From a virus (taxonomy: Duplodnaviria > Caudoviricetes), in the IMG/VR virus record IMGVR_UViG_2838247499_000001, positions 1 to 64,000 of that record: 64,000 nt of DNA, one strand, 5' to 3'. How positions within the stretch are numbered: the stretch's first letter is position 1; each line of letters starts with the position of its first letter. The notes below the pieces were generated by a model. That model made no database searches. It had not been told where the DNA came from and saw only the letters and a program-made list of their open reading frames with translations. The translations under genes were made by a program, and so were the position numbers. Below, piece by piece: positions 2,954 through 61,527 of this stretch.

Positions 2954-4744
2954 TCAGACTCCCGGCCGGGTGTAGGGACCCAGGTTGTTCGGAAGGAAGA
3001 TCCGCTTGCGGTTGGCGTCGTACATCATCCCGGCCGAGCGGGCGGTGCGCAGGCACTCGGCGTCAGCCAGACCCTGCAGCGCGTGGCCCAGCGGGAAGCC
3101 TTGGCCATCAACCCAGCCCGCGATGGACGTCGCTGCGCCGGCGTTGATGTCCTGCGACTGATCCAGCGCCACCGAGCTGTTGAAGAACTGCTTGCGGCCG
3201 TTGACGTAGACGTTCTTCTTCGACACCACGGCCGGGCCGGAGGTGGCCCGCTGGTTCCAGTCCCAGGCGTTCCGAGCTGCGGCGTTGACGCCGCTGTCGA
3301 AGATGTTGTTGTACTGGTAGATCCGCGGAGCGCCAGTGGTGTCCAGGCAGCCAGCCTGGGGGATGTTGGTCTGGGCCAGGCGTACGTAGTTGTTCAGCAC
3401 GAAGTACGTGCCGTTCTTGGTGCCGTCCGGATAGCACAGGATGCCGGAGCCTTCCGTGTCGCAGATCTCGTTGTAGGCGATGAAGTGCCCACCCGAGCCG
3501 TTGCCGGTGATGCCGCCGCTGGTCGTGTGGTAGATCTTGTTGCCGATCGCCCGGTTGGCGTCCTCGATGCAATCGAAGGAGCCACCACGCACACCGTCCG
3601 TGCCCATCCACGAGGTCGGCGGCGTCCCGCCTGCACCGGCCGCGCCCAGGCCCAGCTTGATGGCCGTGCCGCTGCGAGCCACGGGCGTCGAGTAGGTCCA
3701 GTTGGCGCCGTCCCAGAACAATGCCGTGACGTTGTTGCCCAGGATCTCCTTGAACGTGTTCCAGTTGACGCTGATGCCCATGCCGATAGCGTCGATGCCG
3801 TCCTGGGCCATGCCGATGCAGGTGTTGTCCAGGAAGAAAGCCCGACCCAGCCAGCGGCCAGCGATCGAGGCGTGACCGCCGTGGACCGCAGCGTTGTAGG
3901 CGTAGTTCGGATCCGTGTTAGGGGCACCCGGGCGGCGACCGAATTGGGGGTTCAACGAGACGTTGTCTTCGATGAGCAGCTCCGTACCCGCCCGCATCAC
4001 GTAGCCGCCAGAACCGCTGGGATCCACACGGAAGTTGTGGAAGAAGCCCTCCACCGTGTTGCGCCGCATGGTCGTGCGCTTGTGGCGCGAGTAGCTCGAG
4101 CCCATCAAGTCGTTCGGGATGTTGGCCAGGATGCCGTAGCGGCCCATGGCGTTGAGCGTCCCGAAGCCATCGCTGCCGTTGACCTGACAGTCCTCGATGG
4201 TGTTGCCGTTGCCGAAGACGTACAGCCCGATGTTCTCGTAGCTCAGCGTTTCCGGCTGGTTCGAGCCACCGGGGGCGTTGATGTTGCGTGCCGTGACGTA
4301 GTCGTAGTCCGGCGAGCGGATCTTGAAGCCAGTGACGCGGATGTCCTCACCCAGCCAGCGAATGGCGGCCACCTGGCGCTCAGCGGCCGTGCGGCCACCG
4401 CTCATGTTGATGTACGACTGCGCGCCATCCCCGCGGCCGTCGAACCAGATGCCACTGGCCTTCGAGGACAGTGCCCGGGTCTGGCCGAAACAGATGCCAC
4501 CCATGTTGGCGGCCCATTCACCCGAGGCGAACAGGCCGTTGGCTGCCAACGCGCTGGGCCACTCGCTGCGATCAGCCAGCGTGAAGATGCCAGAGCCACC
4601 ACAGAAAGCGACACGGTCACCAGCCTTGATCGTGCCGGCCTCGATCGCGTCGTAGGCCTGCTTGACGCTGAAGGCGTTCGTCGGCGACGAGCCGTTGCCA
4701 CCGGTGTAGCCGGTGGACTTGGGCTGGACATAGAAGTCAGTCAT
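2954..4744 (-). CDS. tail spike / putative depolymerase, parallel beta-helix
   Basis: 596 aa, G/N/I-rich repeats (NTIEDC, GNKIYHT, YNEICDT..SGI) in tail module. Confidence 0.65.
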   Translation of the reverse strand: MTDFYVQPKSTGYTGGNGSSPTNAFSVKQAYDAIEAGTIKAGDRVAFCGGSGIFTLADRSEWPSALAANGLFASGEWAANMGGICFGQTRALSSKASGIWFDGRGDGAQSYINMSGGRTAAERQVAAIRWLGEDIRVTGFKIRSPDYDYVTARNINAPGGSNQPETLSYENIGLYVFGNGNTIEDCQVNGSDGFGTLNAMGRYGILANIPNDLMGSSYSRHKRTTMRRNTVEGFFHNFRVDPSGSGGYVMRAGTELLIEDNVSLNPQFGRRPGAPNTDPNYAYNAAVHGGHASIAGRWLGRAFFLDNTCIGMAQDGIDAIGMGISVNWNTFKEILGNNVTALFWDGANWTYSTPVARSGTAIKLGLGAAGAGGTPPTSWMGTDGVRGGSFDCIEDANRAIGNKIYHTTSGGITGNGSGGHFIAYNEICDTEGSGILCYPDGTKNGTYFVLNNYVRLAQTNIPQAGCLDTTGAPRIYQYNNIFDSGVNAAARNAWDWNQRATSGPAVVSKKNVYVNGRKQFFNSSVALDQSQDINAGAATSIAGWVDGQGFPLGHALQGLADAECLRTARSAGMMYDANRKRIFLPNNLGPYTRPGV

Positions 4745-11991: not shown

Positions 11992-12033
11992 AGCTGACGC
12001 TCATTCCATCTCCTGGGAGCGTCGGCTTTTTTT
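11992..12033 (+). terminator. intrinsic terminator-like hairpin in nrdJ leader
   Basis: AGCTGACGCTC / GAGCGTCGGCT 11-bp stem, 14-nt loop, T-run. Confidence 0.65.
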
Positions 12034-24047: not shown

Positions 24048-24206
24048 ATGCCCTTCTTCCCCAAACCCCAACCAGTCGATCCCTTCGAACTGTTCATGGC
24101 CAAGCTCATTGGCGTGAAGTTCGAGCGTAGAGAAGCCAACACTGTCCTCGTTGGCTATCTCTACAAGGGCTGCATCTACGTCACCGAGCTCTACAGCGTC
24201 ACTTGA
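24048..24206 (+). CDS. small hypothetical protein (52 aa)
   Basis: MPFFPKPQPVDPFELFMAK...; A/C-rich leader like other genes here. Confidence 0.5.
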   Translation: MPFFPKPQPVDPFELFMAKLIGVKFERREANTVLVGYLYKGCIYVTELYSVT

Positions 24207-27200
24207 TGAGCGACATCGGCACCGACACCGTGGCCAGGCGATCCAGAGCGCCGGGGTACTGCAAGGCACCCCAGCTCCACGGGTTGTTGCCCAGGTGGTG
24301 CAGGAACGAACCATCCAGCACGTTGGGGCCGATGCTCATGTAGTGATCCAGGGCCATCAGGCCCAGCACTCGACCAGGGTTCTCACGCATCGTGCGAGTC
24401 AGAACTCGCTGGATGCGCAGGAAGTACTTGGTGAACATGAACAGACCCATGTTGTCCAGGTACTGCATGCCGCGGTGCATCGGGACGTCGTAGTTGATGA
24501 ACGTCTCGCTGGCGCGCTGCAGGGCCTGCTCCTTGGTCATCGGGTCCTTCTTGGTCACCAGGTGCTGGTACAGCGCATAGCGGGCCATGAAGTCCGACAG
24601 CCGGGTCATCCGGCTCATGGCCTGGTAGGTCTTGGTGTCGTGCGTCATGTAGACCTGCTTGGCCGCGGCCACCACGCCCGGGTTCAGGGCCTTGGTGAAG
24701 CGCTCGGTGCGACGAGCCCACTCGGTCTTGTACGAGTAGGGGTCGTTTTCCTGGGCGACGTCTTCCACGATCGTGGGCATCAGGCCGGCCTCCATCAGCT
24801 CCTTGACCGGGTTGCGCGCCAGCGCATCCTTCAGGCGGGCCACCTGGCGCTCGATGTCCGAACGGGTGCCATTGCCTGCCGGCAGGTAGCCAGTGTCCAG
24901 CATCTGCTGCAAACGCTGCAGCTCGTTGCTGTCGCGCTCGAAGGCCACGGCGCCGCGCATGGCCACCAGGTGATGACGCACGAAGTCGCGCAGAGGCACC
25001 CCGGACAGAGCCAGTTGGGTGAAGTTCGACAGCACGTTGTCGATCAGCACCACCCCCGACTTGACCACGATGATGTCCTTCGTCTCCTTGACGATCTCCT
25101 TCCAGGCCTCCTCACCGCGGGCCAGATACCAGCCCAGCTTCTTGGCGTAGTTGTCGGCCTCGCGGTCGTCCATGCCCTGGCTGCGCGCATACAGGTCGAA
25201 CCAGCCTCGAACGATGGCTTGCACGCCCTTGAGCGTGTCCTTGTCCTTGCGCAGGAACTCAGCAGCAGAAGCCGCCCGATAGCCGAACATGACGTCCAGC
25301 ATGTCGTTGTGGACGTACATGCCCTTGAAGCCCCAGACCCGGTTTACCTCCTGCTTGGTCTTCTCCGGCAGCAAGCGCCAGATCTCCTTGAGCTGGGGAT
25401 CCGTGCTGTCCACCCCGACCAGGAAGTAGCCCTTCTGGCGGTTGACGTCACGATCAGCGTCGAACTGCGCCTTCAATGCCTGCACGGCCTCGGAGTTCTG
25501 CGCCGGCGTGGTTTGCTTGTCGAACACCGAGCCGGCCAGGGTGCCGAGAACTGCATCGAAGTCGTTGTTGCGCTGCAGGATGTCGTCCTTGGTCTGCTCC
25601 TCCATCAGATGGCGCCAGTTCACCACCTTTCCGTGCTCGTTGTAGACGGGCGCCATGTGGTGGGTGCGATCGAGCTCGAGGTCCCGATGCGGGTCCAGGC
25701 GACGATCCAGCAGCGACAGCTTGCCGGCAGTCACCGCGGCCTGGCGCTGGGCATTGCGCCGGCCATCGTCGAACCCGGTGTGCAGGAAGCCGTTGTGCAG
25801 CTGCGAGCCCTTGGCCGCGGTGTCGGTCAGCGACATGATCCCGGAGTCCCAACGGGCACGGGCAGCACCGCGGCGCACGTAGATGCGCTGCTTCTGGCTC
25901 ACCGGGTCGTGCAGGTCGTCCTGCACCTTGGCTCCCTCGGAGAAACCCTGAGCCAGCAGATCCTTGCCCCGCTCCTCGCCGGCGACTTCGAAGGCGGTGT
26001 GCGGGTTGAAGATCTCGGGCGTGTAGCCGTGCTGCATCAGCACCGGGTTGCCCCCGAACAGGCGCTCCAGGGCGTCAGCCTCCAGCTTCTTCAGCGTGCG
26101 CAGCAGGAAGTCCACCCCGTTGCCGCCATCCTGGCGAGCCGTCTCGGCAGACAGCACCGCGGCCGCGCGGGTCTTGTCAGCCACATCGGTCGACTTCAGG
26201 GCGAACAGCGAAGCCAGCACCTTGATGCTGTCCTCGTGCTCCTCAGCCACTGCGCTGGCATGGGCCTCGTACCGGGTGTCGAGCATGCGCGCGATCACGT
26301 GGGCGTTGGGCATCAGGAAGCCCTTGACCTGGCCGGTGGCCTTGAAGTGCCCCAGGATGCGAGCCTGCTCGACGTACAGCCGGCGCAGCCGGGCTGGCAG
26401 TCGAGCCTCGAACTGGGCGATGGCCTGGTCGAGCGCCGGCTGGCTGGTCAGCAGCTGCTCCATCTCGTTGAAACCGAAGTGGTCCAGCAGGTTATGCAGG
26501 CCCGTCCGCATGAACACCCGCGTCACGCTGGCCTTGGCTTCCGAGCTCAGGTCCTTGCCCTCGTTGACGAACGACTCCAGGGCGAACTTGGCCGAGTTGC
26601 TGATCAGGCTCTTGCGCTGGGCTTCCCGGTGCTTGACCAGGCGCAGGGACTTCTCGGCCCACTCCTTCACGCCGGCGACTTCGCGCAGCAGCGACGACAG
26701 GATGCCGCCTCGCTCGTTCATCGTGCGATCGCGGAACTGCTGCAGCGCGTCATAGAACTGCTGCTGGCGGTGGCCGGCGACGGTGCGGACCACCGCGGCA
26801 CTGCCCTTGACGATGCCGCTCTTGCTCTTGCGGAAGAAGTCCGAGCCAGCGACCTGCTCGACCTTTTTCATGGTCGCCTCGCTCGCCTTGGTGACCGCGT
26901 TCTCCAGTGGCTCCAGGTAGTTCACCCGCGCCTTGCCGTCCTTGATGGCTTCGCGGTTCTTGGCTTCGATGTCCACCAGCTGGCCAACCAGGGTCTGCAG
27001 CTTCTCGTCCAGGTTCTGGCCGTCGTAGGTGTGCGTGGCCATCCGGGCGAAGAAAGCCAGGATGTTCTCGAACACGATCTGCACCTTGTCGGCGAAGGTC
27101 TTGCCCTCGCTGACCGTGCGCCGATCCTTGCTCGGCACCTGCAGCAGCTTGTTCACGCCCTGGTGAGCGAGCGCCAGCGCAGCGAACCGGGCGAGGTACT

Positions 27201-30200
27201 CGCTCTTGTCGCCGTTGTCGGCTTCCACCTTGAAGATGAAGTCGTAGTGCGCCGGCGAGGCGAAGTCCGAGGGCTTCAGCGTCTGCTGGGCCTCGGTGAA
27301 CAGGTCCGACAGCTCCTGGTAGGCCAGCTTGGTGTGGCCGGAGTTGTCCTTCAGCGCCGCTCGCACCGTGGCTTCCACCTGCTCGATGGCGAACGCTTCC
27401 TGGTCCGACACCGGCAGGTTGGCCAGGACCCGGCTGGCGAAGGGCGCCAGGCCGGTCTGCTGGGCCTTCAGCCAGGCTTCCCGGGGGGAAGTCGGGGCGT
27501 AGGGCTTCAGGGCCTCTGCGAACGCGCCAAACGGGCCGTGGAGCGCGTCGACGATGCCGGACAGGAGTTCGGACAGGTGCGCCTCGAATCGCGGCTCCAG
27601 GGGCCGATTCGCGTCGGCCAGGGCCTCATGGATCGCCTGGGTCGTGAACGCATCCACGGCAGCCATCGACCGGTTGATCGAGGCAGCCTCCGTCTGCTCC
27701 TGCGGATTCTGCAAGCCCTGGGTCTGAGCCACAGCCTGAACCAGGCCCGACACGTTGGCCACCAGGAGTGCGAGCCCCGTCTCCGCTTCGTGGAACAGCG
27801 GGTTGCCCACTGCCTTGCCCAGCAGGCCGGTCAGCGCCTTGATGAACTTCTGCAGCCCGTTGAGCAGGCGGTTGCCACCCGACTTCGACGGGGCATACAT
27901 GCTGGCCAGGATGTCACGCTGGAACGCTTCGTTGGTCATCCCCCAGGAGATGAACTCGTCCAGGTTCTCGGTGGCCGCGGCATAGCGGCCATCCTTGTCC
28001 ATCGCCTTGGCCTGCTCGCGCAAGGCCTCGAGCTCGTCGATGAGCTGCTTGGCAGCCGGGTCCGGCTGCTTGCTGGTGCGCTGCTCCCACAGGTAGCGAG
28101 CCAGGACACCGTGCAGCATCTCGTGCAGCACCGTCTCCGCGGTCAAGCCAGAGGCCTTGAAGGCCGGGCTCAGGAAGTTCACCTCGTGGCGACCCTGACC
28201 GGCCACGTACCAGCCACGCGACGGGGTCTGCGCCGGCGCGATCACCGCATCCACCGCGGTGTCAGGCTTGACCAGGCGGAACGCCAGGTCGTTGGGCAGG
28301 ACCCGGGCCACCAGGGCCAGTAGCTTCTGGTTGGCCGGCGACAGGCCGGCACCCTTCAGGTACGCCACCATCTCGGTGCCCGACTTGTCACCACCGTCCA
28401 GGAAGGCCACCAAGCCCGTGTCGCTGGCCACCGCCGACCGGCCCAGCTCACCGAACGGCGAGGTCTTCGGGGCAGGCACGGCAACAGGCGCAGCCTGGAT
28501 CGCCGGCGCCGGCTTGGCGAACACCGCCAGGTGCAGCAGCCCCAGGGCCTCCATGTGGGACGGGTCCATCATCTGCGGCACAGCGGCCAGCTTCTCGGCC
28601 GCGGCCTTGCGGTCAGCGTCGGTCACCTCGTAGCTGCCGCCGTCGAAGGCGTACTGGTCCACCACCGCCCACTGGCTCATGGCCTGCAGCTTGGTCGTGT
28701 CCGCCTGGCGGGCCAGGTCGAAGGCCTTGCCCATCGCGTCGGCCAGCACCTGCTCGGGAGACTGCTTCTTGGAAGCCAGCGCCTCGAACACCTGGCGCAA
28801 GTTGGCCACCGCGGCCGGGGTCAGCGTTCCGGCGTCCTGCATGGCGGCGATCCCGCTCACCACCCGAGCCAGCGCATCGTAGGCCGCGGTCATGGGCGAG
28901 TAGCCCAGCAGCGACTCCCAGGTGCTCTGGTTGAACGCCTGGGCGGTCTTGGCCAGCGTGCCGACTCCGTCACCCACGGCGTCGTGGATGTTCAGGATGT
29001 TGCGGCCCAGCTGGGTCAGGTGGGAGATCTTGCTGTCCAGCGAGTGCGTCGAGGCCGACACCGCCAGCACGCCGGGACCGGTCTGCTGCACGGCCTGGCC
29101 ACGGGCCGTCAGCTGCTTGGCGCCGTTGCCCAGGGGTTGGGCAAAGCCCACCGCCGTCTCGTAGGCAGGCGAGTCCACCGGGCCACGCTCGCGTCGAGCC
29201 AGCAGGATCCCGTGCGCCAGGTTGCCATCGTCCTGGCTCATGGCCGTGTGCATCACCGGCAGGATGCCGGCCAGCTTCTCTTTCAGCTGGGCTTCCTGCT
29301 CGGCCGACAGGTCGTGCAGCGGCACGCCGGCCTTGTTGCGCTCGATGCCCAGCTCGTCCATGAATTCACCGCGGGCCGCCTGGTACACCGCGTTGTAGAG
29401 CTCGTAGGCCAGGCTGGTCGTGGTCGTCAGCGCCTTGCGCTTCTCGATGAAGGGGGCAAACGCCTTCTCCACCACGCTCGCCGTGGCCTCACCCATCGTG
29501 TCACCGTAGGCCTTGCGCAGCGCCTTGAGCTGTCGATCCGACAGTACCCGGGCGTCCATGTACTTGGCGATCGGCTGGCCCACTTTCAGGGTCGGCGCAC
29601 CACCGTGCTGCAGCAGCGTGTTCAGGTTGGCGATGAAGTCGTCGACCCTCTCCTGGCTGGCTTGCTTGACCGAGAACTGCTCGAGCTGGGCGTAGACCCC
29701 CTCGATGAAGGTCTGGGCCATGCCGCGGCGGATGCTCTTGAAGCCAGAACCGAAGTTCAGCGGGTTCAGCGCACCCTTGACCAGGTCACGCCCGGCCTTC
29801 GTCACCACACCAGCGTCGTCGGCCACCCGGCCGGCCACGTTCCAGATCGCCGAGATCACGCCGGCAGGGACCTTGCCCTCGCCCAGCATGCCGCGCATAC
29901 GACGGTCGATGTCCTTGGCGGTGTGCTCGTAGATGTCCGCGTTGCCCGCGGTGCCACGCCAGATGTTGTACTGGCGGAACTCGCTGTCCTCGGTGAAGAA
30001 GCCGCCGCGCTCGAGCAGCGCCTGCAGGTCTTCCACCGTCTCGCCGGCGCCGTAGAGCACGTGGTTCAGCATCGTGCCGTTGGCTACGCCGTCCACCTCA
30101 CCCATCAGGTCGGTGGTGAATTCCTTGGCACCGGTGGCCAGCGCCTGCTGGTAGTGCGCCCAAGCGATCAGCGCCGCCAGGGTGTGCAGCTTCTCCTTGC

Positions 30201-33200
30201 CGGCCAGCACCGCATTGACGATCGCGCGCTGCTGCTTGGCGTCCAGCTCGGTGGCGCCGTACAGGGCTTGCTGCAGGGCCTGCACGCCGGCGACGAACAC
30301 CGGCTCCTGGAGCTGGGCTTCGACCGCGGCCACCGACTTCTGGCTGGCACCCTTCTCGGTCTTGATGCCCAGGCCCTCGGCCACGCGCAGCTTGAAACCA
30401 GTCAGCAAGGGACCGCCCTCGACCGGCACCGTGGTCTTCCAGTCCGGATGCACGGTCAGCCAGCGGTGGATCTTGCTGGTCTGCGGGTTCACGGCCGTCG
30501 TCTCGATGCCGACCCGCTGCTGCTTCCACATGTTGTACGTGAGGAAGAAGGGCTGCTCGACACCACCGTTCGGCACCAGGACCTCGCTCACGAAGTCCAT
30601 GAAGCTCTTGAACTCGCGGCGGTAGCCATCGTTCTTGGCTTCCTTGCCCTTGCGGTTCACGCCGTGCGTGTTCTCCGCGGTGACTTCCACCACACCGGCC
30701 ATCTCCAGGGCCATCTCCTCGGTGAGGGCGCTCAGCACCTTCATCGGGTCCTTGGCCACCACTCGACCGTTGTCGGTCTGGTTCTGCTTGATGACCTTGC
30801 GGATCAGGTCCGGCACACCCATGTCGGTGTCCGACTTCTGCTGCACCTGCTTGACGGGCTCGACGCTCGGCAGCTTGGCGGCCGACTCGATGCCGAACAG
30901 GCTGCCGATGATGTTCTGCGAACCCTTCAGGGTGTCGGCGATCTCCTTGGCCTGGCCGGTCAGCTGGCGCTGCCCGTCCCGGGCCAAGCGGAAGAAGTGG
31001 TGGGGCTGCTTGTTGGCCAGCGCCGGGGGGTTGTCCACACCCTCGTAGCGCAGGTCATGGATCAGCTGGGCGTCGATGTCCGTGCGGATCACGATGCCCT
31101 GGTCCTCCAGCAGCTTCAGCGCATGGGCACCCAGCGACACCCGCAGCTTGGCGATCATGTCCTGGGGAGCGTCCTTGCGCGCCTTCAGGCCCAGGGCGTC
31201 GAGCACCCGCGAGCCAAGGGAGTCCACCAGCATCGACTGGTAGCTGCCCACCTGGCCCAGCGTCTCACGCGCCAGCTGCGACACCACATCGTCTTCGCTG
31301 TGACCCAGGATGCTGTTGATGTCGGCATCCAGGTTCACATCCAGCCGGCCGGCCTGGTCACCGATCCAGGCGAACACCGCCGCGGTGATGCCGGTCTTGA
31401 CGTTCTCCTCGACGTCGCCGTCGACGATCAGGTAGCGGATCGGGTCCTCGAAGTTGAACGCCTCGTTGTGCGAGGGCTTCAGGTTCTTCTGGATCTCGCC
31501 GGCCCAGGCCTTGGCCTTGAGGGCGAACATGCGCAGCGCGCTCTGTTGCTCCTCGGTCAGGCCGTCCTTGTCCTTCAGGTACTCGCGCAGCTGGATGGCC
31601 TTGGCCGCCCACTTGCTCATGAAGTCCTTGACCGCCACCAGCGGACGGAGGGACCCGTCCTTGATGGATCCCTTCACCTGGGTGAAGAAGTCCCCGAACT
31701 TCTTGGTCCGGTGCGTCGCACCTTCGCCAGCGCTGTCGCGCGTGGCTCGGAGCTCACCCGACTCCACAGTCTGAGCTTGAGCTTCAGTCGACTGAGATTC
31801 AGCCTGCAGAGCACTCTGCTCAGAGTTCGTGACAGACTCCGCGAGATCAGCTTTGCTAACCTCGACTGGGGCTGCAGGCGCATCCTGCGCTGCAGAGAGG
31901 CTGGTATCCTTCGGATTAGACTGGTTTTGACCCTCAGCTCGACTGTCAACTGCAGTCGACTCAGGGGACTGAGACACAGTGTTCTCAGTCTCCACAGTAG
32001 AGCCGGAGGCTACTACAGCAGCCCCGGCCTCGGACTTCAGCCCAGCGGACTCCACCGCGTTCGAAGCTCCGGCAGCGGCAGGTCCAGCATCTTGGACTGC
32101 AGCACCGCCTGCTCCATCTTTTGCCGGCGCTCGTTGCGCTGCTTGACCTTGAGTGCCCGCTCCTGCAGCGGAACCTTGCGGTGCGTTCTGGACATTCGTC
32201 CCTCCAGTGGTGGTAGTGGTCTTCGGTTGAGAGAACTTCAGGTCGTAGCCAGCCTTGAGCTCGGCCAGCGCCTTGTTGATCGCCTCGGCTTCCCGGGGCA
32301 GCTGCGTCAGCCACTTGTCCGTGCTGATCGTCAGGCCGCCGTTCTGGGCCATCTGCTTGTCCGACAGGCGGGGGCCGTTGTTCACGACCCACTCGCCGGC
32401 CTTGGTGCGGACGATCTGGCCGCCCACATCCGCGTCTTCCGCGGCACGGGCCTTGGCCTGGTGGTCGGCGGCGAACTTGGCCAGCAGGGCGAGCACCCGG
32501 CCGGCTTCCTTCTGGTCTCCGGAAGCCAGGGCAGCAGCCACCCGCGTGCGGTACTGGTCGATGCCCTGGTAGCCCTTGCCGCCCACGTAGATCTCGGCCT
32601 CGACGCCACCCAGGGTCTTGGCGCGGTTCTCGGCCACCCGGGAATCGGCGAAGGCACGCAGGTAGTTGCGCTGCTCGTCCGTCAGGGCGTTGGTCGCGTT
32701 GTCGGCCAGGCTCAGGGCCTGCTGCGGATCCAGGCGGCCAGGGCTGGCCATGGACAGCGTGATGAGGGCATCGGCCGCATCCCGGGCTGCCTTGGTCGCC
32801 ACGGCATCGTCCGGCGTCACCGTCGCGGTGACCTTCTCGATGTGCGACTGCACCTCGGCGGCCGGGCTCGCCACGACGCCCAGCTGGTCATAGGCCGACT
32901 TCGCCTTGGCCAGCTTCTCGTCCATCCTGGCCACCCGGGCCTGCATCTCGGCCAGGACCTTGGCTTCGGGCTGGTTGTCCAGGCTCTCCTGCAGCCCTTG
33001 AATCAGGTCCAGCGTCGAGCTGTGCGCCGGCGTGCCCGGTTGCAGGATGGCCAGCTGTTGCTGGGCGCTCTGCAGCTGCTGCTTCTGGTCAGTCAGCACC
33101 TCGGGCGACACGGCATCCAGGACCTCCTGGGCCTTGTCGCGGCTGGCTTGCAGCTCGCTGACCACCTTCTGGGCCTTGGCCAGGTTGGCCTGCTTCTGCG

Positions 33201-34593
33201 CCGGCGTGGTGGTCTCCTGCTTGGCATGAGCCAGCAGTGCGATCACGGCGTCGTCCGGGGCATAGCCCTGCTTCTTCGGGTCGATCAGCGCGTCGACGTT
33301 GCCCGTCTGGGCAGCATCAGCCACCACCTTGGCCGCAGCTTGCTTCTCCTCCCGAACCTGGGCCTGCTCAGGCGTGGCGCCGGTGGCTTCAGCCACAAGG
33401 CGTCCGCCGCCAGACAGGCCAGCACCTGCAATGCCACCGATCGCCGCACCGGCGTAGATGTCCTTGGCCGAGGCCGGCTTGCCCGTGACCTCACCTTCCA
33501 TGTACGTCTGGAAGCCTTCGGTCGGCGCCTCGGTCAGCAGGCCTTCACCGGCTGCCTTGCCGGCGTTCTTGAGCGACTGCTTGAAGCCAGCAGTGACAGC
33601 GTCCTTGCCCTTGCCTGCGAAGGCGAGAGCGGCCGTGTCGCCTGCGTGCTCGGCGATGGCCAGGGACGCGGCTTGCAGCGCCATCTTCTGGCGCACATCC
33701 TCGGGTGGCAGCTCGCCGCCGTGCTGCGCCTGGTAGTTCTGGATGCCCTGGTTGTAGTTGTCCAGGGCATAGCCGACGTTCGAAGCACCCAGAGCCACCT
33801 TGCCCGCCTTGCCAGCCACACCACCCACCGCCAGCTGCGGCAGGTTCTGCACGACGTACTCGAGCGAAGCCTGCGGATTCCCCGCGGCGACAGCACCGGC
33901 GTTGTAGATCAGCTTGGCCAGGCCGGCCGTGACGTTGGCCACCCCACCTTCCTTGACCTGGCTCCATGCCGGGTCGAAGCCAGCGCCCAGCTCCTCGTTG
34001 AAGGCCGTCTGCTTGGACTGCAGCACCGTGTCCTTGTAATCGGTGGACTCGACGATGTTGCGGGCCGATTCCCGCTTGACGTTCATGTCCTTCCAGATCG
34101 ACAGCGGCGTCGGCGCGTTCGGGTTCTGATCGGTCATGGCCTGCGCACGGGCCTGCACCTGCGCGCGCATCTCCGGATCGGTGATACCGCCCGGGATGAC
34201 CACCGGAGGCGCAACCTTGCGGTTGATCTGTGCCATGTCGGCCGGCGACGCCTGGCCCTTGTGGAAGCGATCCAGTGCAGCCAGGTCCTGCTCGGTCAGG
34301 TTGGCCTGGTCGGCCGCGGCGATCGTGCCGGGAATCAGGCTGGCCAGCTGGCCGGCCAAAGTGCCCAGGCCCTGGTATGCGCTGGCGCCCAGGTTCACCG
34401 CCCGGCCGAGAATGTTGTCCTCGTTCAGGCCGAGTTTCCGGACCCAGGAATCCTGATCGTTCACCACCGGCGTTGCCGGGGTTTGCGGAGCCAGCTCGGC
34501 CTTTTTCTGTTCCGATGCCGCGGCGAGATTCAGCCGTTTCTGCTCAGCCTCCAGACGGGCATTGAGAAGGGCATCGAGATCGAATGGGGACAT
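24199..34593 (-). CDS. virion-encapsidated RNA polymerase (N4 gp50-like)
   Basis: ~3464 aa, no Cys noticed on reading, T7-family motifs DGVANG (A), R.3K.7FG (B), IHDA (C); start MSPFD. Confidence 0.96.
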   Translation of the reverse strand: MSPFDLDALLNARLEAEQKRLNLAAASEQKKAELAPQTPATPVVNDQDSWVRKLGLNEDNILGRAVNLGASAYQGLGTLAGQLASLIPGTIAAADQANLTEQDLAALDRFHKGQASPADMAQINRKVAPPVVIPGGITDPEMRAQVQARAQAMTDQNPNAPTPLSIWKDMNVKRESARNIVESTDYKDTVLQSKQTAFNEELGAGFDPAWSQVKEGGVANVTAGLAKLIYNAGAVAAGNPQASLEYVVQNLPQLAVGGVAGKAGKVALGASNVGYALDNYNQGIQNYQAQHGGELPPEDVRQKMALQAASLAIAEHAGDTAALAFAGKGKDAVTAGFKQSLKNAGKAAGEGLLTEAPTEGFQTYMEGEVTGKPASAKDIYAGAAIGGIAGAGLSGGGRLVAEATGATPEQAQVREEKQAAAKVVADAAQTGNVDALIDPKKQGYAPDDAVIALLAHAKQETTTPAQKQANLAKAQKVVSELQASRDKAQEVLDAVSPEVLTDQKQQLQSAQQQLAILQPGTPAHSSTLDLIQGLQESLDNQPEAKVLAEMQARVARMDEKLAKAKSAYDQLGVVASPAAEVQSHIEKVTATVTPDDAVATKAARDAADALITLSMASPGRLDPQQALSLADNATNALTDEQRNYLRAFADSRVAENRAKTLGGVEAEIYVGGKGYQGIDQYRTRVAAALASGDQKEAGRVLALLAKFAADHQAKARAAEDADVGGQIVRTKAGEWVVNNGPRLSDKQMAQNGGLTISTDKWLTQLPREAEAINKALAELKAGYDLKFSQPKTTTTTGGTNVQNAPQGSAAGAGTQGQAAQRAPAKDGAGGAAVQDAGPAAAGASNAVESAGLKSEAGAAVVASGSTVETENTVSQSPESTAVDSRAEGQNQSNPKDTSLSAAQDAPAAPVEVSKADLAESVTNSEQSALQAESQSTEAQAQTVESGELRATRDSAGEGATHRTKKFGDFFTQVKGSIKDGSLRPLVAVKDFMSKWAAKAIQLREYLKDKDGLTEEQQSALRMFALKAKAWAGEIQKNLKPSHNEAFNFEDPIRYLIVDGDVEENVKTGITAAVFAWIGDQAGRLDVNLDADINSILGHSEDDVVSQLARETLGQVGSYQSMLVDSLGSRVLDALGLKARKDAPQDMIAKLRVSLGAHALKLLEDQGIVIRTDIDAQLIHDLRYEGVDNPPALANKQPHHFFRLARDGQRQLTGQAKEIADTLKGSQNIIGSLFGIESAAKLPSVEPVKQVQQKSDTDMGVPDLIRKVIKQNQTDNGRVVAKDPMKVLSALTEEMALEMAGVVEVTAENTHGVNRKGKEAKNDGYRREFKSFMDFVSEVLVPNGGVEQPFFLTYNMWKQQRVGIETTAVNPQTSKIHRWLTVHPDWKTTVPVEGGPLLTGFKLRVAEGLGIKTEKGASQKSVAAVEAQLQEPVFVAGVQALQQALYGATELDAKQQRAIVNAVLAGKEKLHTLAALIAWAHYQQALATGAKEFTTDLMGEVDGVANGTMLNHVLYGAGETVEDLQALLERGGFFTEDSEFRQYNIWRGTAGNADIYEHTAKDIDRRMRGMLGEGKVPAGVISAIWNVAGRVADDAGVVTKAGRDLVKGALNPLNFGSGFKSIRRGMAQTFIEGVYAQLEQFSVKQASQERVDDFIANLNTLLQHGGAPTLKVGQPIAKYMDARVLSDRQLKALRKAYGDTMGEATASVVEKAFAPFIEKRKALTTTTSLAYELYNAVYQAARGEFMDELGIERNKAGVPLHDLSAEQEAQLKEKLAGILPVMHTAMSQDDGNLAHGILLARRERGPVDSPAYETAVGFAQPLGNGAKQLTARGQAVQQTGPGVLAVSASTHSLDSKISHLTQLGRNILNIHDAVGDGVGTLAKTAQAFNQSTWESLLGYSPMTAAYDALARVVSGIAAMQDAGTLTPAAVANLRQVFEALASKKQSPEQVLADAMGKAFDLARQADTTKLQAMSQWAVVDQYAFDGGSYEVTDADRKAAAEKLAAVPQMMDPSHMEALGLLHLAVFAKPAPAIQAAPVAVPAPKTSPFGELGRSAVASDTGLVAFLDGGDKSGTEMVAYLKGAGLSPANQKLLALVARVLPNDLAFRLVKPDTAVDAVIAPAQTPSRGWYVAGQGRHEVNFLSPAFKASGLTAETVLHEMLHGVLARYLWEQRTSKQPDPAAKQLIDELEALREQAKAMDKDGRYAAATENLDEFISWGMTNEAFQRDILASMYAPSKSGGNRLLNGLQKFIKALTGLLGKAVGNPLFHEAETGLALLVANVSGLVQAVAQTQGLQNPQEQTEAASINRSMAAVDAFTTQAIHEALADANRPLEPRFEAHLSELLSGIVDALHGPFGAFAEALKPYAPTSPREAWLKAQQTGLAPFASRVLANLPVSDQEAFAIEQVEATVRAALKDNSGHTKLAYQELSDLFTEAQQTLKPSDFASPAHYDFIFKVEADNGDKSEYLARFAALALAHQGVNKLLQVPSKDRRTVSEGKTFADKVQIVFENILAFFARMATHTYDGQNLDEKLQTLVGQLVDIEAKNREAIKDGKARVNYLEPLENAVTKASEATMKKVEQVAGSDFFRKSKSGIVKGSAAVVRTVAGHRQQQFYDALQQFRDRTMNERGGILSSLLREVAGVKEWAEKSLRLVKHREAQRKSLISNSAKFALESFVNEGKDLSSEAKASVTRVFMRTGLHNLLDHFGFNEMEQLLTSQPALDQAIAQFEARLPARLRRLYVEQARILGHFKATGQVKGFLMPNAHVIARMLDTRYEAHASAVAEEHEDSIKVLASLFALKSTDVADKTRAAAVLSAETARQDGGNGVDFLLRTLKKLEADALERLFGGNPVLMQHGYTPEIFNPHTAFEVAGEERGKDLLAQGFSEGAKVQDDLHDPVSQKQRIYVRRGAARARWDSGIMSLTDTAAKGSQLHNGFLHTGFDDGRRNAQRQAAVTAGKLSLLDRRLDPHRDLELDRTHHMAPVYNEHGKVVNWRHLMEEQTKDDILQRNNDFDAVLGTLAGSVFDKQTTPAQNSEAVQALKAQFDADRDVNRQKGYFLVGVDSTDPQLKEIWRLLPEKTKQEVNRVWGFKGMYVHNDMLDVMFGYRAASAAEFLRKDKDTLKGVQAIVRGWFDLYARSQGMDDREADNYAKKLGWYLARGEEAWKEIVKETKDIIVVKSGVVLIDNVLSNFTQLALSGVPLRDFVRHHLVAMRGAVAFERDSNELQRLQQMLDTGYLPAGNGTRSDIERQVARLKDALARNPVKELMEAGLMPTIVEDVAQENDPYSYKTEWARRTERFTKALNPGVVAAAKQVYMTHDTKTYQAMSRMTRLSDFMARYALYQHLVTKKDPMTKEQALQRASETFINYDVPMHRGMQYLDNMGLFMFTKYFLRIQRVLTRTMRENPGRVLGLMALDHYMSIGPNVLDGSFLHHLGNNPWSWGALQYPGALDRLATVSVPMSLIK
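32037..32195 (-). CDS. candidate overprinted 52-aa basic protein within vRNAP (+1 frame)
   Basis: GGAGG SD 5 nt before ATG; 45/52 codons end in G/C while vRNAP-frame codons here are atypically A/T-ending. Confidence 0.55.
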   Translation of the reverse strand: MSRTHRKVPLQERALKVKQRNERRQKMEQAVLQSKMLDLPLPELRTRWSPLG

Positions 34594-34654
34594 AGGTATT
34601 CCGGAGGGCTCGGGTAATTGGGGACAGAGTGTACCCAATACCCGCCCCGGAATA

Positions 34655-35410
34655 TCAGCGCCCGTACTCTTGCATTCTCCGGAAACTCTCCGGATTCACC
34701 GGTTTCGGGTCTGCCCACAAACCCCTCTTGGCGGCCCGCGCTTCATTTTCCGCAGCCACCAGGTCGGGGTTGTTCACATACCGGCGATACAGCCAGGCCA
34801 TGCCGTCCTTGATCATCGCCTTGTCGATGTTGGCGCCGGAGATCTCGATCTGGCACAGCGACCGGTCGTAGTTCTTGCCCGCCACGGCCGGCCGGGAGAT
34901 CTTCAGGGTGACCTCCTTGTTGAGCACCATCTCCTCCAGCCGGCGCTTGCTCTCCTCCCCGAACGGCTGGCCGGCCTTGCCCACCTTGGAGTGGGCCACT
35001 TCCGGCGCGTCGATCGAGTCGATGCGGCAGTTCACCGTGGAGCCGTCGCCCCGCTTGGCGCTCAGGCTGTCGCCGTCGCCCACGTAGGTGATGACGGCCT
35101 TCTCCCCACCGGCGCTGGAGGGCTTGCCCTGCACCGCGGTCACCGGCTGCTGCCACTGCACATCCTTCGGGATTGCCACAGGCTTGCTGGCTTCCGTGGT
35201 CGTGCCGCTGCCCACGTTCAGTGCCACGTGATCGGTCGCCGGCTTGGCCTGGGCAGAGCTCGGGCTCGAACCAGGAACAGCAGCAGGCTTGGGCGCCTCG
35301 AAGGCACCCAGCGACTTGGCTGGTTGCGGCGACTTGCCCAGCCCGTCCATCGGCAGTGACCCCGCCCCACCAGCTGCCGGAGCAGCTGGCGTGGACGTCG
35401 GGGAGGTCAC
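34655..35410 (-). CDS. staphylococcal nuclease (thermonuclease) domain, probably a frameshift extension of the upstream protein
   Basis: DGDS, RIDSIDAPE, GMAW, ARAAKRGLW; ~90-aa P/A/S linker; GTG start without SD. Confidence 0.85.
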   Translation of the reverse strand: MTSPTSTPAAPAAGGAGSLPMDGLGKSPQPAKSLGAFEAPKPAAVPGSSPSSAQAKPATDHVALNVGSGTTTEASKPVAIPKDVQWQQPVTAVQGKPSSAGGEKAVITYVGDGDSLSAKRGDGSTVNCRIDSIDAPEVAHSKVGKAGQPFGEESKRRLEEMVLNKEVTLKISRPAVAGKNYDRSLCQIEISGANIDKAMIKDGMAWLYRRYVNNPDLVAAENEARAAKRGLWADPKPVNPESFRRMQEYGR

Positions 35411-36585
35411 CGGGCTTTTTTTGCCGCGTTGTCGAAGATGGTCTGGGCGTCCTTCAGCGCGATGGCCTGGCGATCCCGCAGGTTCACCAGCTCGTCACGC
35501 AGGTTCTGCGTGCGTGCCCGGCGATCAGCGAAGTCGCTGCCTTCCACGATCTTCTTCATGTCGGCCTTCAGCAGCCCGACGATCGTGTCGTCCATCTTGT
35601 TGGAGCCAATCAGCTTGGCGACGTTGCCCACCAGGCCCGTACCCACGTTCGAGGCGTACTGCTGAACCAGGGCCTGAAGCCGTGCCTCGGGAATGTGGGC
35701 GAATCGCGGGTCAGAGGTCACCGCCTGGCCCACCAGCGCCATGTACTTCTCGCGGTTGTCCTTGTCCGGGATCTGATCCGAGATCGACTTGACGATCCGG
35801 TCGTAGGCCTCGGCGTTGCCCTTGTCCAGCGCAGCGATGCGCGCCGTCGTCTCACCCAGGCCCCGTTCCATGCGATCCAGGCTCTGCAGGAACACCTGCT
35901 TCTCGTTGGTGTTGGCGTTCTTCACGGATGCCTGGGCCTGCGTGGCCGAGGCGTTGGCCTGGATCCGAGTGGAGTCGGCGTTCTTGTCCGCGGTGGCACG
36001 AGCCAGCGGGATGTCCGCAGTCTGGGCCGTCGACAGGGCGATGTCGGCCGTGGCCTTGTCCGCGGCTCGCTTGTCGACGTAGGCCTTCTGCACCAGCTCA
36101 CCCACGCCAGGCATGCCCTTGGCGGCGAGCTCACGCAGCATCGCCTCGGCGCCGGCGACATCGCCATGGGCAGCCATGAGGCGGGCCTGTTCGAGCACCG
36201 GCCGGGCAGCGACTTCCGCCTGCTTGTCGGTGAATGCCTGGTTCTGCAGGACCTGCTGCTGCACCGCCGCGTTGCGGGCATCCTCGGCACCGATCAGTTC
36301 GGCCCGGCTCTTGGGGTCCAGGGCAGCGCGGATCTGCTCCAGCTGGCCGGACTGCTGCAGGGCCGCCAGCTGCTCGGGCGTCTTGGCGTTGGCCAGGGCC
36401 TCCTTGAAGGCCACCGTGTCGCTCAGGCGCTGGCGATCCAGGACACCCTGGTTCACATCGCGCTGGTCCGTGAGCACCTTGCCCACGCCATCGAAGGCGC
36501 CGGCGATCGAACCCTGGGCCGCCAGGAGCGCACGAGACGCTTCAGCGATCGAGGGGGCGTTGACGTTCTGCCAGGTGATCGGCAT
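35407..36585 (-). CDS. internal virion/ejection protein (N4 gp51-like)
   Basis: PITWQNVNAP N-terminus, Cys-free helical protein, position between gp52-like and vRNAP. Confidence 0.75.
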   Translation of the reverse strand: MPITWQNVNAPSIAEASRALLAAQGSIAGAFDGVGKVLTDQRDVNQGVLDRQRLSDTVAFKEALANAKTPEQLAALQQSGQLEQIRAALDPKSRAELIGAEDARNAAVQQQVLQNQAFTDKQAEVAARPVLEQARLMAAHGDVAGAEAMLRELAAKGMPGVGELVQKAYVDKRAADKATADIALSTAQTADIPLARATADKNADSTRIQANASATQAQASVKNANTNEKQVFLQSLDRMERGLGETTARIAALDKGNAEAYDRIVKSISDQIPDKDNREKYMALVGQAVTSDPRFAHIPEARLQALVQQYASNVGTGLVGNVAKLIGSNKMDDTIVGLLKADMKKIVEGSDFADRRARTQNLRDELVNLRDRQAIALKDAQTIFDNAAKKAR

Positions 36586-37106
36586 TACTTCACCCCGTAC
36601 TGGTTCATGTACTCACCCACCGACTGGTAGGCCCCGGGGTTCGATGCGACCCGGGCGCGCTGGCGATCCGACAGCTGCGAATTCACCATGTTCTTCTGCG
36701 CGCCGAAGTTCAGGTCGAACTGGCGCTTGCCTTCTGCCAGCTGCTGCTTGGCCAGGCCGTACTGCTGCATGCCGAAGTAGGCGCTGGCCAGGCCCGAAGC
36801 CAGACCCAGAGCCGTACCGCCCCAGCCAGGCGCTTCCTTGGTGCCGACCGCGCCCTTCATGAAGTCGCCGAAGCCAGACATCCAGTTGCCACCGCCCGCG
36901 GTGCCGGTGCCCGACGCCAACAGCGGCAGCGAGTCGCTGATCGAGTTCGCCCCGAAGGCGTTCGTGCCGTCGAGCTCGGCCTTGCTGAGCTGCGGCAGAA
37001 CGACCGGGTTGCTGTAAACCTCACCGAAATTCCCGGTGAAACCATTGCCGCCGCCCTGGGGCATATAGCCGAAGTTCGTCAGCGCAGTCAGGTAATCATT
37101 GCCCAT
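36585..37106 (-). CDS. internal virion/ejection protein (N4 gp52-like)
   Basis: Gly-rich with hydrophobic hairpin, ATG/TAA overlap, synteny. Confidence 0.75.
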   Translation of the reverse strand: MGNDYLTALTNFGYMPQGGGNGFTGNFGEVYSNPVVLPQLSKAELDGTNAFGANSISDSLPLLASGTGTAGGGNWMSGFGDFMKGAVGTKEAPGWGGTALGLASGLASAYFGMQQYGLAKQQLAEGKRQFDLNFGAQKNMVNSQLSDRQRARVASNPGAYQSVGEYMNQYGVK

Positions 37107-39403: not shown

Positions 39404-39429
39404 AAAAAAAAGGGGAGCCGAAGCTCCCC
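39404..39429 (-). terminator. intrinsic terminator
   Basis: GGGGAGC-TTCG-GCTCCCC-T8 on minus strand. Confidence 0.85.
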
Positions 39430-46401: not shown

Positions 46402-46428
46402 AAAAAAGCCCCCAGCGATGGGGGCTTT
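46402..46428. terminator. bidirectional intrinsic terminator
   Basis: A6-GCCCCCA-GCGA-TGGGGGC-TTT between convergent genes. Confidence 0.8.
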
Positions 46429-50513: not shown

Positions 50514-50794
50514 TCATCCTCCCGAGTAATGGTCTAGTTCAGGTTGGGTTATAGGGGACATATAGTACCTGAAACCCGGGACCAGCCATTTTCTGGAAAG
50601 GGGAGGGCGAATATGTAACCGCGGGGTTGGGGGAATTTTCATAGCGGGGTACGAGTGCAGGACTCCCACCACGTTCCGCAAACTCCAAATCACCCCCCCC
50701 CCCACTCCTCGCGTAGGGACTCCAAAGGCCTCCGGCCTTGACGCGGGTGGCGTAGCTATCCACCTGTTCATCAACCTACGTAGGAGATTCCACC
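50514..50794. other. probable genome end / terminal-repeat junction between late and early regions
   Basis: Divergent non-coding gap between gp69-like and first early gene; C11 tract at 50693-50703; matches N4 layout. Confidence 0.6.
50725..50746 (+). promoter_or_regulatory. vRNAP hairpin promoter candidate
   Basis: AAGGCC-TCC-GGCCTT-G-N4-GG. Confidence 0.7.
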
Positions 50795-58126: not shown

Positions 58127-58169
58127 AGCCGACAGATCCATCCAACAGGGTGGGCCTGTCGGCTTTTTT
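58127..58169 (+). terminator. intrinsic terminator
   Basis: AGCCGACAG...CTGTCGGCT followed by T-run. Confidence 0.7.
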
Positions 58170-58603: not shown

Positions 58604-58789
58604 ATGCACCAACCCCTCCCGCCGATGCCCATGGCGCTGTTCCCCACCATGGGCAGCTTGCAGGAGGTGCTGGATCTCGCCGAGTCGCGCCTGCCCCTCA
58701 CCTCCAAGAACGACGTCACCACCCTGCTGATGACGTACCACAACACCCTGCTCAGCGAGCTGGCGAAGCACCAGTGCATGTCGGCCTGA
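58604..58789 (+). CDS. hypothetical protein
   Basis: 61 aa, LLMTYHNTLL. Confidence 0.7.
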   Translation: MHQPLPPMPMALFPTMGSLQEVLDLAESRLPLTSKNDVTTLLMTYHNTLLSELAKHQCMSA

Positions 58790-61181: not shown

Positions 61182-61527
61182 CTCCCGAGAGTCCAGACCA
61201 CAGATCGACCATGGAGAACCCCATGAACAGCATATAGCTGCGGCCCGCTCAGGGCCAACGCAACCCGACCAGCAAACCCTCGCGCACCTGTCGCATATGA
61301 GGGTCGAACCAGGCGCCGCACTGAGCTCTTAGAGCACCAACCACCGCGCCGTTGACCTCGCACCTGGCTGCCCACATCGCAGCAGTCCAGGAGCCGTCCG
61401 GGCGCCATCTGAGACACGAGCAGTCGCTGCAGCACTGCCTTGATCTTGATGCCGACCCGGACGTAAAGCTCCCCCCACTGAACCAGCTGCATACAACGAT
61501 CACACAGAGGCCATGGGCCTCTTTTTT
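61180..61527 (+). ncRNA. putative ~350-nt structured RNA or leader
   Basis: Between hairpin promoter and terminator AGAGGCC...GGCCTCT-T5 (61506-61527); many stems; no good CDS. Confidence 0.4.

Follow-up and report, generated by a model that had tools for sequence, protein, structure and literature searches.

The stretch of DNA analysed here, referred to as the window (64,000 nt, positions 1 to 64,000 of IMG/VR record IMGVR_UViG_2838247499_000001), represents 64 kb of an N4-like (Schitoviridae-type) phage with a genomic G+C content of 64%, and carries the ejection operon on its minus strand. In the direction of transcription, a gp52-like gene is followed by open reading frame (ORF) 1, which is gp51/gp72-like, by ORF2, which encodes a staphylococcal nuclease (SNase), and by the gene for the virion RNA polymerase (vRNAP). 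We describe the junction between ORF1 and ORF2, where a slippery heptamer, a stop codon and a stable hairpin form a candidate cassette for -1 programmed ribosomal frameshifting (PRF) that would fuse an ejection protein to a nuclease, as a sequence-only reading of the window had proposed. The elements of the junction, followed by the neighbouring genes, are:

35407 to 36585, minus strand: ORF1, the 0-frame product, a gp51/gp72-like periplasmic-tunnel ejection protein of 392 aa ending in ...NAAKKAR before the stop, assigned by its match to DEV gp72 and its operon position
35416 to 35422, minus strand: slippery heptamer A_AAA_AAA in the ORF1 frame (GCA AAA AAA), the only in-frame A_AAA_AAA of the window
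35412 to 35415, minus strand: spacer GCCC, separating the heptamer from the hairpin by 4 nt (counted to a G-U pair) or 5 nt (counted to the first G-C pair)
35355 to 35411, minus strand: bipartite hairpin of 23 bp, four of them G-U, with an 8-bp lower stem starting from GGUGACC, a 6-nt internal loop on the 5' side, an upper stem of 5+10 bp and a UCCG loop
35407 to 35409, minus strand: 0-frame stop TGA, two codons past the heptamer and within the 5' arm of the hairpin, overlapping the -1 frame Val codon GTG (35408-35410)
34655 to 35416, minus strand: -1 frame part of the proposed fusion, with S-P-V, a Pro/Ala/Ser-rich linker, a conserved pre-domain (IPKDVQW...) and the SNase, the linker matching the continuous ORF of the related locus L046
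34655 to 35410, minus strand: ORF2, linker plus SNase, 251 aa from a GTG start, in the -1 frame relative to ORF1, with its stop at 34655-34657
34709 to 35026, minus strand: SNase (staphylococcal/thermonuclease) domain (Pfam PF00565; PDB 1syb_A)
36585 to 37106, minus strand: gp52/gp73-like outer-membrane pore ejection protein of 173 aa, first gene of the operon (PDB 8vxq_A, 'N4 gp52-like protein', E 1.5e-21; phrog_2646, E 7e-28)
24199 to 34638, minus strand: vRNAP gene, 3,479 aa, directly downstream, with the ATG at 34593 as its probable start; in 8 related loci, too, the SNase is followed by a homologous ORF

ORF1 lies between the gp52-like gene and the vRNAP gene on one strand, an order also found in N4 (gp52, gp51, gp50, the last being the vRNAP), and its start overlaps the stop of the gp52-like gene in a TAATG at 36585. 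The protein matches DEV gp72 (PDB 8vxq_R) over aa 2-199 with an E-value of 1.9e-5 and has an N-terminal ITWxNVxAPS motif in common with N4 gp51, in a match that covers 41 aa only (E 5e-4); past about 200 aa, the similarity to either protein is weak. On sequence similarity and gene order, the 392-aa ORF1 product is a homologue of the DEV gp72/N4 gp51 tunnel protein. Passages of the papers on the two ejectosomes describe gp51/gp72 as the tunnel and gp52/gp73 as the outer-membrane pore (PMC11445570, PMC13434306).

As the sequence-only reading had stated, ORF1 ends with GCA AAA AAA GCC CGG TGA, with a run of seven A residues at 35416-35422. Upstream of its GTG, ORF2 has another 29 codons without a stop in the same frame, and 254 codons separate the shift site from the stop. 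A one-base backward slip on the heptamer would therefore join the two frames into a product of 390+2+251 = 643 aa, reading ...AAKK-SPV-TSPTSTP..., so that both the frame relation and the length of the proposed fusion hold; the predicted tryptic peptide across the junction is SPVTSPTSTPAAPAAGGAGSLPMDGLGK, preceded by K. One extra A in the run would give a single ORF. Two further details of the sequence-only reading can be confirmed: no Shine-Dalgarno sequence precedes the SNase ORF at a usable distance, and the stretch ahead of the nuclease, which had been put at about 90 aa, measures about 90-125 aa with linker and pre-domain together.

The heptamer is out of character for this genome. Across 53 ORFs, Lys is encoded by AAG 904 times and by AAA 57 times (5.9% of 961), in keeping with the earlier remark that AAG is nearly always used; GCA, the codon at which the heptamer begins, accounts for 6.8% of Ala codons, and TCA, present in the 3' arm of the hairpin, for 1.8% of Ser codons. 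Only three A/T runs of at least 7 occur in the 64 kb, and the other two, together with all runs of 6, are intergenic U-tracts of sense-strand terminators. The A7 run itself is real: an independent Logan re-assembly of sequencing run X1 (depth 358), possibly the sample from which the record derives, is identical over this stretch and keeps it, and a 151-nt contig from a soil metagenome of another study (X2) spans 35299-35449 with 2 mismatches and 0 gaps. At the level of contigs, neither source contains the eight A residues that the sequence-only reading had considered as the mark of a simple fusion or an assembly error.

Some observations on the rest of the record may be added. The terminator U-tracts (12027-12033, 39404-39411, 46402-46407, 58164-58169 and 61522-61527) lie next to short GC hairpins and agree with the local gene orientation, and the A/T runs of at least 6 outside the junction have the appearance of intrinsic terminators that delimit the transcription units. 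A C11 homopolymer at 50693-50703 lies in an apparently intergenic, low-complexity stretch. The phage record is classed as 'provirus', and the 75,149-b phage contig has a depth of 358 in the 5.6-Mb X1 assembly, against 363 and 378 for two other contigs; for an N4-like, lytic-type phage in the assembly of an isolate, a level of about one copy per chromosome points to a carrier state or to pseudolysogeny.

The hairpin downstream of the heptamer is exceptionally stable. Its 57-nt core folds with -38.0 kcal/mol, a stability reached by 1 of 21,315 minus-strand windows of the same length and by none on the plus strand, which places it second among the 21,315 minus-strand folds; the single more stable one (58613-58669, minus strand) has -38.6 kcal/mol. 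Within an 86-nt context the z-score is -4.35, and none of 200 shuffled sequences is as stable. The fold has four G-U pairs, pairs that the sequence-only reading had described as valid only on the coding strand, and on the opposite strand it is weaker by 6.7 kcal/mol. The long hairpin of the sequence-only reading is thus real, and its distance from the heptamer has to be revised from 3 nt, a count that includes another possible C-G pair, to 4 nt if the G-U pair is taken as the base of the stem or 5 nt if the first Watson-Crick pair is.

To place the junction in an evolutionary context, related ejection-operon DNA was obtained by scans with alignments of the SNase module. Among the 29 viral loci given by one of these scans (L042-L070), those from L042 to L052 were examined, and L053-L070, at 34% identity or less, were left out, as were the weak matches L008 and L009. 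Two of the examined loci, L051 and L052, were set aside, as the SNase there lies near the N-terminus of other long proteins. In the loci used, the flanking genes (a gp52-like ORF on the upstream side and the vRNAP on the downstream side) identify true ejection operons, except that L005 is too short to tell and the L048 contig ends before the vRNAP. Seven contigs in five sequence-distinct lineages, the window included, have the tunnel protein and the SNase split between frames. One more locus, L007, has a fused SNase part but a different break of frame farther upstream, close to the 5' end of its contig (ERZ1034361, coverage 1.86), which is probably a low-coverage error, and is counted neither as split nor as fused. 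The 0-frame ends of the split contigs read:

window: GCA AAA AAA GCC CGG TGA
L005: GCA AAA AAA GCC AAG TGA
L006: TCA AAA AAA GCG AAG TGA
L003: GAA AAA AAA AAG AAG TGA, with an A10 run
L049 and L050: CCA AAA AAG CAG AAG TGA, with A6G
L042: TTC CCA AAG GTG AGG TGA, without a homopolymer

In all seven, a -1 shift is needed to enter the SNase frame, and an in-frame X_XXY_YYZ heptamer is followed by exactly two codons and then TGA, overlapped in every case by a GTG. Three kinds of heptamer (A_AAA_AAA, A_AAA_AAG and C_CCA_AAG) occupy this one position, and since the C_CCA_AAG of L042 has no homopolymer, neither a homopolymer miscall nor stuttering of RNA polymerase explains that locus.

The hairpin recurs as well, starting 3-6 nt past the heptamer in four of the five lineages. 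The sequences of the stems differ from lineage to lineage, while the plan is common to them: a lower stem starting from (G)GUGAC is separated by an internal loop of 6-10 nt, confined to the 5' side, from an upper stem of 6-15 bp, which is closed by a loop of 4-8 nt. With flanks included, the z-score is -4.13 for L005 and -3.38 for L006, where the core alone reaches -4.04 (none of 300 shuffles and none of 674 locus windows as stable); for the L042 core it is -4.18 (a stability matched by no shuffle out of 300 and by 1 of the 1,095 windows of the locus). The upper stems of the window (GCCAGCUGC/GCAGCUGGU) and of L005 (AGCACCUAC/GUAGGUGUU) are unrelated, lower-stem positions 6-9 are altered on both sides in L049, and at the two differences between L005 and L006 within the hairpin, pairing is kept through G-U. 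As the stems are out of register in the sequence alignment, covariation is argued here from the separate folds and not from a formal statistic. The sense fold is more stable than the antisense fold in five of five loci, four of which have 2-4 G-U pairs. Conservation of both elements in relatives, suggested at the outset as a check, is therefore found for the heptamer in five lineages and for the hairpin in four.

A second line of evidence comes from relatives in which the two parts form one uninterrupted protein. A profile built from ORF1 and the N-terminus of the L001 protein, used at E <= 1e-3, found 851 relatives, most of them 370-550 aa long with Lys/Arg-rich tails, and a C-terminal SNase is present in 6 of the 149 non-self family representatives listed. 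The fused forms are:

L001: single ORF of 654 aa
L045 (605-3043): 812 aa, with an additional Glucosaminidase domain (PF01832, E 4e-19)
L046 (83-3061), and L047 on another contig: 992 aa, with an additional SLT domain (PF01464, E 2e-11)
L048: 817 aa

The L001 protein is 33% identical to ORF1 over 160 aa at its N-terminus and 46% identical to ORF2 (E 1e-64) from the linker to the end. The -1 product of the window, GKKSPVTSPTSTPAAPAAGGAGSLPMDGLGKSPQPAKSLGAFEAP, aligns with the uninterrupted L046 linker, LKKKSPVSDAAPAV...SSLPMDGLGNSPTPTKSLGAFEAP, from KKSPV onward, so that the homology takes in the S and P encoded upstream of the window GTG, and where the window has the overlapping GTG, the fused forms have GTA, likewise a codon for a conserved Val. 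In L045 and L046 the peptidoglycan hydrolase domains are placed between the tunnel part and the SNase; the N4 ejection proteins, according to a passage of the N4 ejectosome paper, appear to be without peptidoglycan hydrolase activity.

At the same position of the linker, L001 has an A11 run (3006-3016) and L046 an A9 run with A_AAA_AAG (about 2240-2251, TTA AAA AAA AAG). In both, the two alternative frames stop within 5-7 codons, so that a short form could arise there by slipping. These runs may represent a mirror image of the window, in which slippage would produce the short isoform, or else a hypermutable tract, and they hint that both isoforms are wanted. Many of the gp51-like proteins of the family (P0003-P0151) end in KKK, KKR or KRK. 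One of them, the 448-aa P0003, is close to the L001 N-terminus and ends in PEKKKKK without the SNase of L001; here, too, a poly-A run has probably split the gene.

Other searches define the reach of this family. In INPHARED, blastn with the region returned 10 Pseudomonas N4-like records only, each by a match of about 170 nt within the gp52-like gene; tblastn with ORF1 gave no match there, and ORF2 gave 5 unrelated phage SNases only. Neither ORF1 nor P0003 as a single query found relatives among viral contigs, a word-indexed protein search with ORF1 found only itself, and no Pfam domains were detected in N4 gp51 or in 12 long family members. The DNA pattern CAAAAAAAGCSMRGTGACC had three matches in viral contigs, all due to chance in unrelated sequence. 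In contigs of cellular genomes there are 29 distant SNase loci with at most 39% identity, and the one inspected, L013, has no gp51-like ORF.

The nuclease frame shows the signs of a maintained gene. PF00565 matches ORF2 at aa 129-234 with an E-value of 1e-20 and 74.6 bits, the cut-off being 21, and in the alignment with PDB 1syb_A (E 8e-8) the motifs DGD, R-x4-D-x-PE and Y-x-R line up. These motifs, whose residues we take to be the Ca2+ ligands and the catalytic Arg, Glu and Arg, are invariant in alignments of 6-7 sequences of relatives. The SNase frame is open for about 250 codons in every split lineage, and between L005 and L006 the ratio of nonsynonymous to synonymous substitution rates (dN/dS) is 0.107 (dN 0.034, dS 0.318; 250 codons). 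Judged by these substitutions and motifs, the split SNase frame is under purifying selection and probably functional. Enzymes of this kind, which cut DNA and RNA, need Ca2+, and this requirement would predict that the nuclease acts in the periplasm or at the envelope.

The junction combines an in-frame X_XXY_YYZ heptamer, a long coding -1 frame, a stable downstream structure and conservation in relatives, as expected of PRF. What is observed there (an anatomy that is statistically rare and yet conserved, homologues in fused form and selection on the SNase frame) is best accommodated by the -1 frameshift of the sequence-only reading, in view of the uninterrupted homologues, the heptamers in seven of seven split contigs and the hairpins in four of five lineages. 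We consider it probable that this is a canonical -1 PRF cassette in a new gene context. From the arrangement we infer the following course, which extends from the slip and its efficiency to packaging, ejection and the target of the nuclease. On GCA AAA AAA GCC CGG TGA, most ribosomes would terminate and thereby yield the tunnel protein of 392 aa. Some would pause at the hairpin 4-5 nt past the heptamer, both Lys-tRNAs would slip back by one base on A_AAA_AAA, and reading would continue with AGC CCG GUG ACC..., first along a flexible linker (about 90 aa) and then into the C-terminal SNase, giving a 643-aa tunnel-nuclease isoform. As the long form holds the whole tunnel protein, it could enter the intracapsid ring around the portal together with the short form and be ejected with it, and a sub-stoichiometric, probably Ca2+-dependent nuclease would reach the envelope or the cytoplasm at infection. 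Frameshifting would serve to keep this bulky cargo sub-stoichiometric.

Several observations weigh against this reading. Nothing significant folds downstream of the A10 run of L003 (z +0.64 and -1.44), and the L049 hairpin has a z-score of about -2.2 (core z -2.16) and appears in the centroid and not in the minimum-free-energy fold. RNAalifold on a MAFFT alignment of the five hairpins yields a poor consensus, with the 3' arms misaligned. The distance between heptamer and structure is optimal at 5-9 nt, and the spacers of 3-6 nt across the loci fall at the short end of this range. Lys/Arg-rich C-termini occur family-wide, so that the presence of two Lys residues before the stop, as distinct from the codons used for them, is in part a constraint on the protein. 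The evidence for A7 comes from contigs and not from raw reads, the X2 contig has a depth of about 2, and a minor A8 subpopulation is possible. Among RNA sequencing runs, none was found to contain the locus. Finally, with a GTG over the stop in all split loci, termination-reinitiation could yield a free SNase protein.

This last point leads to the proposal that ORF1 and ORF2 are two genes, the SNase being translated from the GTG of GTGA by termination-reinitiation while heptamer and hairpin serve some other purpose, such as limiting reinitiation or mRNA stability, or none. The overlap of GTG and TGA in seven of seven split contigs would be accounted for, an overlapping stop and start is found elsewhere in the operon (the TAATG at 36585), and gene callers annotate the 392-aa protein as a separate product. 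Yet none of the split loci has a Shine-Dalgarno sequence at a usable distance, the GTG is buried in the base of a hairpin of -28 to -38 kcal/mol, and its conservation as a Val codon in the fused forms means that no start function is needed to explain it. Three kinds of heptamer in one register and the rare codons would be left unexplained, the L046 homology reaches upstream of the GTG, and at the N-terminus of a free SNase the linker of about 90 aa would have no obvious use. We regard the two-gene arrangement as unlikely, while initiation at the GTG may coexist with frameshifting. The homopolymers raise a different issue, namely that RNA polymerase adds one A on the run and part of the mRNAs encode the fusion with no slip of the ribosome. 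A homopolymer is present at the junction of most loci (A7 in the window, L005 and L006, A10 in L003, A6G in L049/L050, and A11 and A9 in the fused L001 and L046), and the lack of a significant hairpin in L003 and L001 is what would be expected of long runs acting on RNA polymerase. Efficient slippage by bacterial RNA polymerase usually needs runs of 9 or more, a length that L003, L001 and L046 reach and the A7 of the window does not; the process needs neither a conserved hairpin at PRF spacing nor a heptamer that is always in the 0-frame X_XXY_YYZ register, and L042 has no homopolymer at all. Transcriptional slippage is therefore plausible at the loci with A9-A11, less so at A7 and impossible at L042, and as a general explanation we find it quite improbable.

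The same runs invite suspicion of the data, since indel errors and mutations occur most often in homopolymers and a single added A restores one ORF: the true sequence might be an undercalled A8, or a recent 1-nt deletion might have left a dying SNase remnant. This is largely refuted by seven contigs of different data sets that are split alike, always by -1 and in one case without a homopolymer, by the recurrence of A7 in the Logan re-assembly (depth 358) and in the contig of a second study, and by an SNase frame that stays open for about 250 codons per lineage with a dN/dS of 0.107 and intact catalytic motifs; we hold artefact or decay to be very improbable. Equally small is the probability we give to an element unrelated to decoding, in particular an antisense intrinsic terminator formed by the hairpin and the plus-strand T7. 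Every other A/T run of at least 6 in the window is indeed the U-tract of a hairpin terminator, and on the plus strand the T7 lies 4-5 nt past the hairpin. Those terminators are, however, all sense and intergenic, whereas this one would act antisense, 11 kb within a block of minus-strand genes. It was not flagged in the terminator scan, its stem is separated from the T7 by the same 4-5 nt and not joined to it directly, the sense fold is the stronger in five of five loci with 2-4 G-U pairs in four, and L042 has no T-run.

The -1 frameshift thus favoured has, as far as the literature searched goes, no precedent among N4-like phages. The ejection proteins of this group were structurally mapped only in 2024-2026, and in the passages searched they comprise a pore, a tunnel and a giant RNA polymerase, with no enzymatic cargo or recoding described (PMC11445570, PMC13434306); neither 'nuclease' nor 'frameshift' occurs in the main text. 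In full-text searches outside subscription journals, with the hits checked in part, no frameshift or SNase (thermonuclease) was found on ejection proteins of N4-like phages or Schitoviridae; among the hits checked, the mentions of frameshifts for Schitoviridae concern host mutations, and that of a ribosomal frameshift for N4-like phages stands in a reference list. The remark in the sequence-only reading that such a nuclease is unfamiliar in N4-likes agrees with these texts, and yet metagenomic N4-like contigs carry gp51-like/SNase fusions. Protein databases do not show the fusion, because gene callers annotate its two parts as separate genes. Taken together, the in silico evidence is strong that the recoding cassette is real and conserved, of a known kind in a new place and with an unreported cargo. 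If so, the small set of recoding sites known in phage virion genes would gain a new member, the N4-type infection programme would gain an injected enzyme, and recoding would set the stoichiometry of a symmetric ring (a 12-mer in the capsid and a 9-10-mer after ejection).

A broader proposal, which we put forward only tentatively and think doubtful as it stands, is that schitovirus ejectosomes in general carry a nuclease dosed by recoding, and that lineages switch between a short form in frame with a long form by slip (window, L005/L006, L003, L042, L049/L050) and a long form in frame with a short form by slip (L046 with A9, L001 with A11). Selection would then act on the ratio of plain to nuclease-bearing tunnel subunits, and entry would bring a tethered, Ca2+-dependent SNase to the envelope or the cytoplasmic face. 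Its substrate there could be nucleic acid of the host or of a competitor, with superinfection exclusion, early host shut-off or the removal of nucleic-acid signals of defence as conceivable roles, and it would constitute a new functional class of injected phage protein.

Among known systems, there is a likeness in mechanism to dnaX of Escherichia coli, which makes tau and gamma as two isoforms at a fixed ratio. It uses the same class of heptamer, A_AAA_AAG, identical to that of L049 and L050, followed by a stable stem-loop about 5-6 nt downstream, and in both systems a stop codon comes close after the site in one frame. In dnaX, slipping yields the short form with the help of an upstream Shine-Dalgarno-like element, whereas here it would yield a long form with an enzyme domain, and the split loci have no conserved upstream Shine-Dalgarno sequence, only L003 having a GGAGG nearby. 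The fused L046 and L001 would resemble dnaX more directly, as slipping there would give a truncated form. A further likeness links the junction to the lambda G/GT tail assembly chaperone and to T7 genes 10A/10B, in which a gene of the virion module undergoes a -1 slip on X_XXY_YYZ near its end and a minor long isoform joins the assembly; those differ from the present case in that the protein here is an ejection protein, the extension would be a catalytic nuclease domain and the hairpin is strong and conserved. DEV gp72 (521 aa) and N4 gp51 (644 aa) have the operon place between a gp52/gp73-like pore and the vRNAP in common with ORF1, and N4 gp51 the ITWxNV motif as well, but they are single ORFs without an SNase. 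Seen from the nuclease, the domain scores far over the PF00565 cut-off and aligns with staphylococcal nuclease in its metal-binding and catalytic motifs, while here it would be the C-terminal module of a predicted virion protein, behind an IPKDVxW pre-domain and a long linker, and not a secreted, stand-alone enzyme. A parallel in function may be seen in T7 gp16, an internal protein of the virion that is ejected and has a lytic transglycosylase domain, to which the Glucosaminidase and SLT domains of L045 and L046 can be compared; in the window the predicted cargo is a nuclease, attached by recoding and not constitutively.

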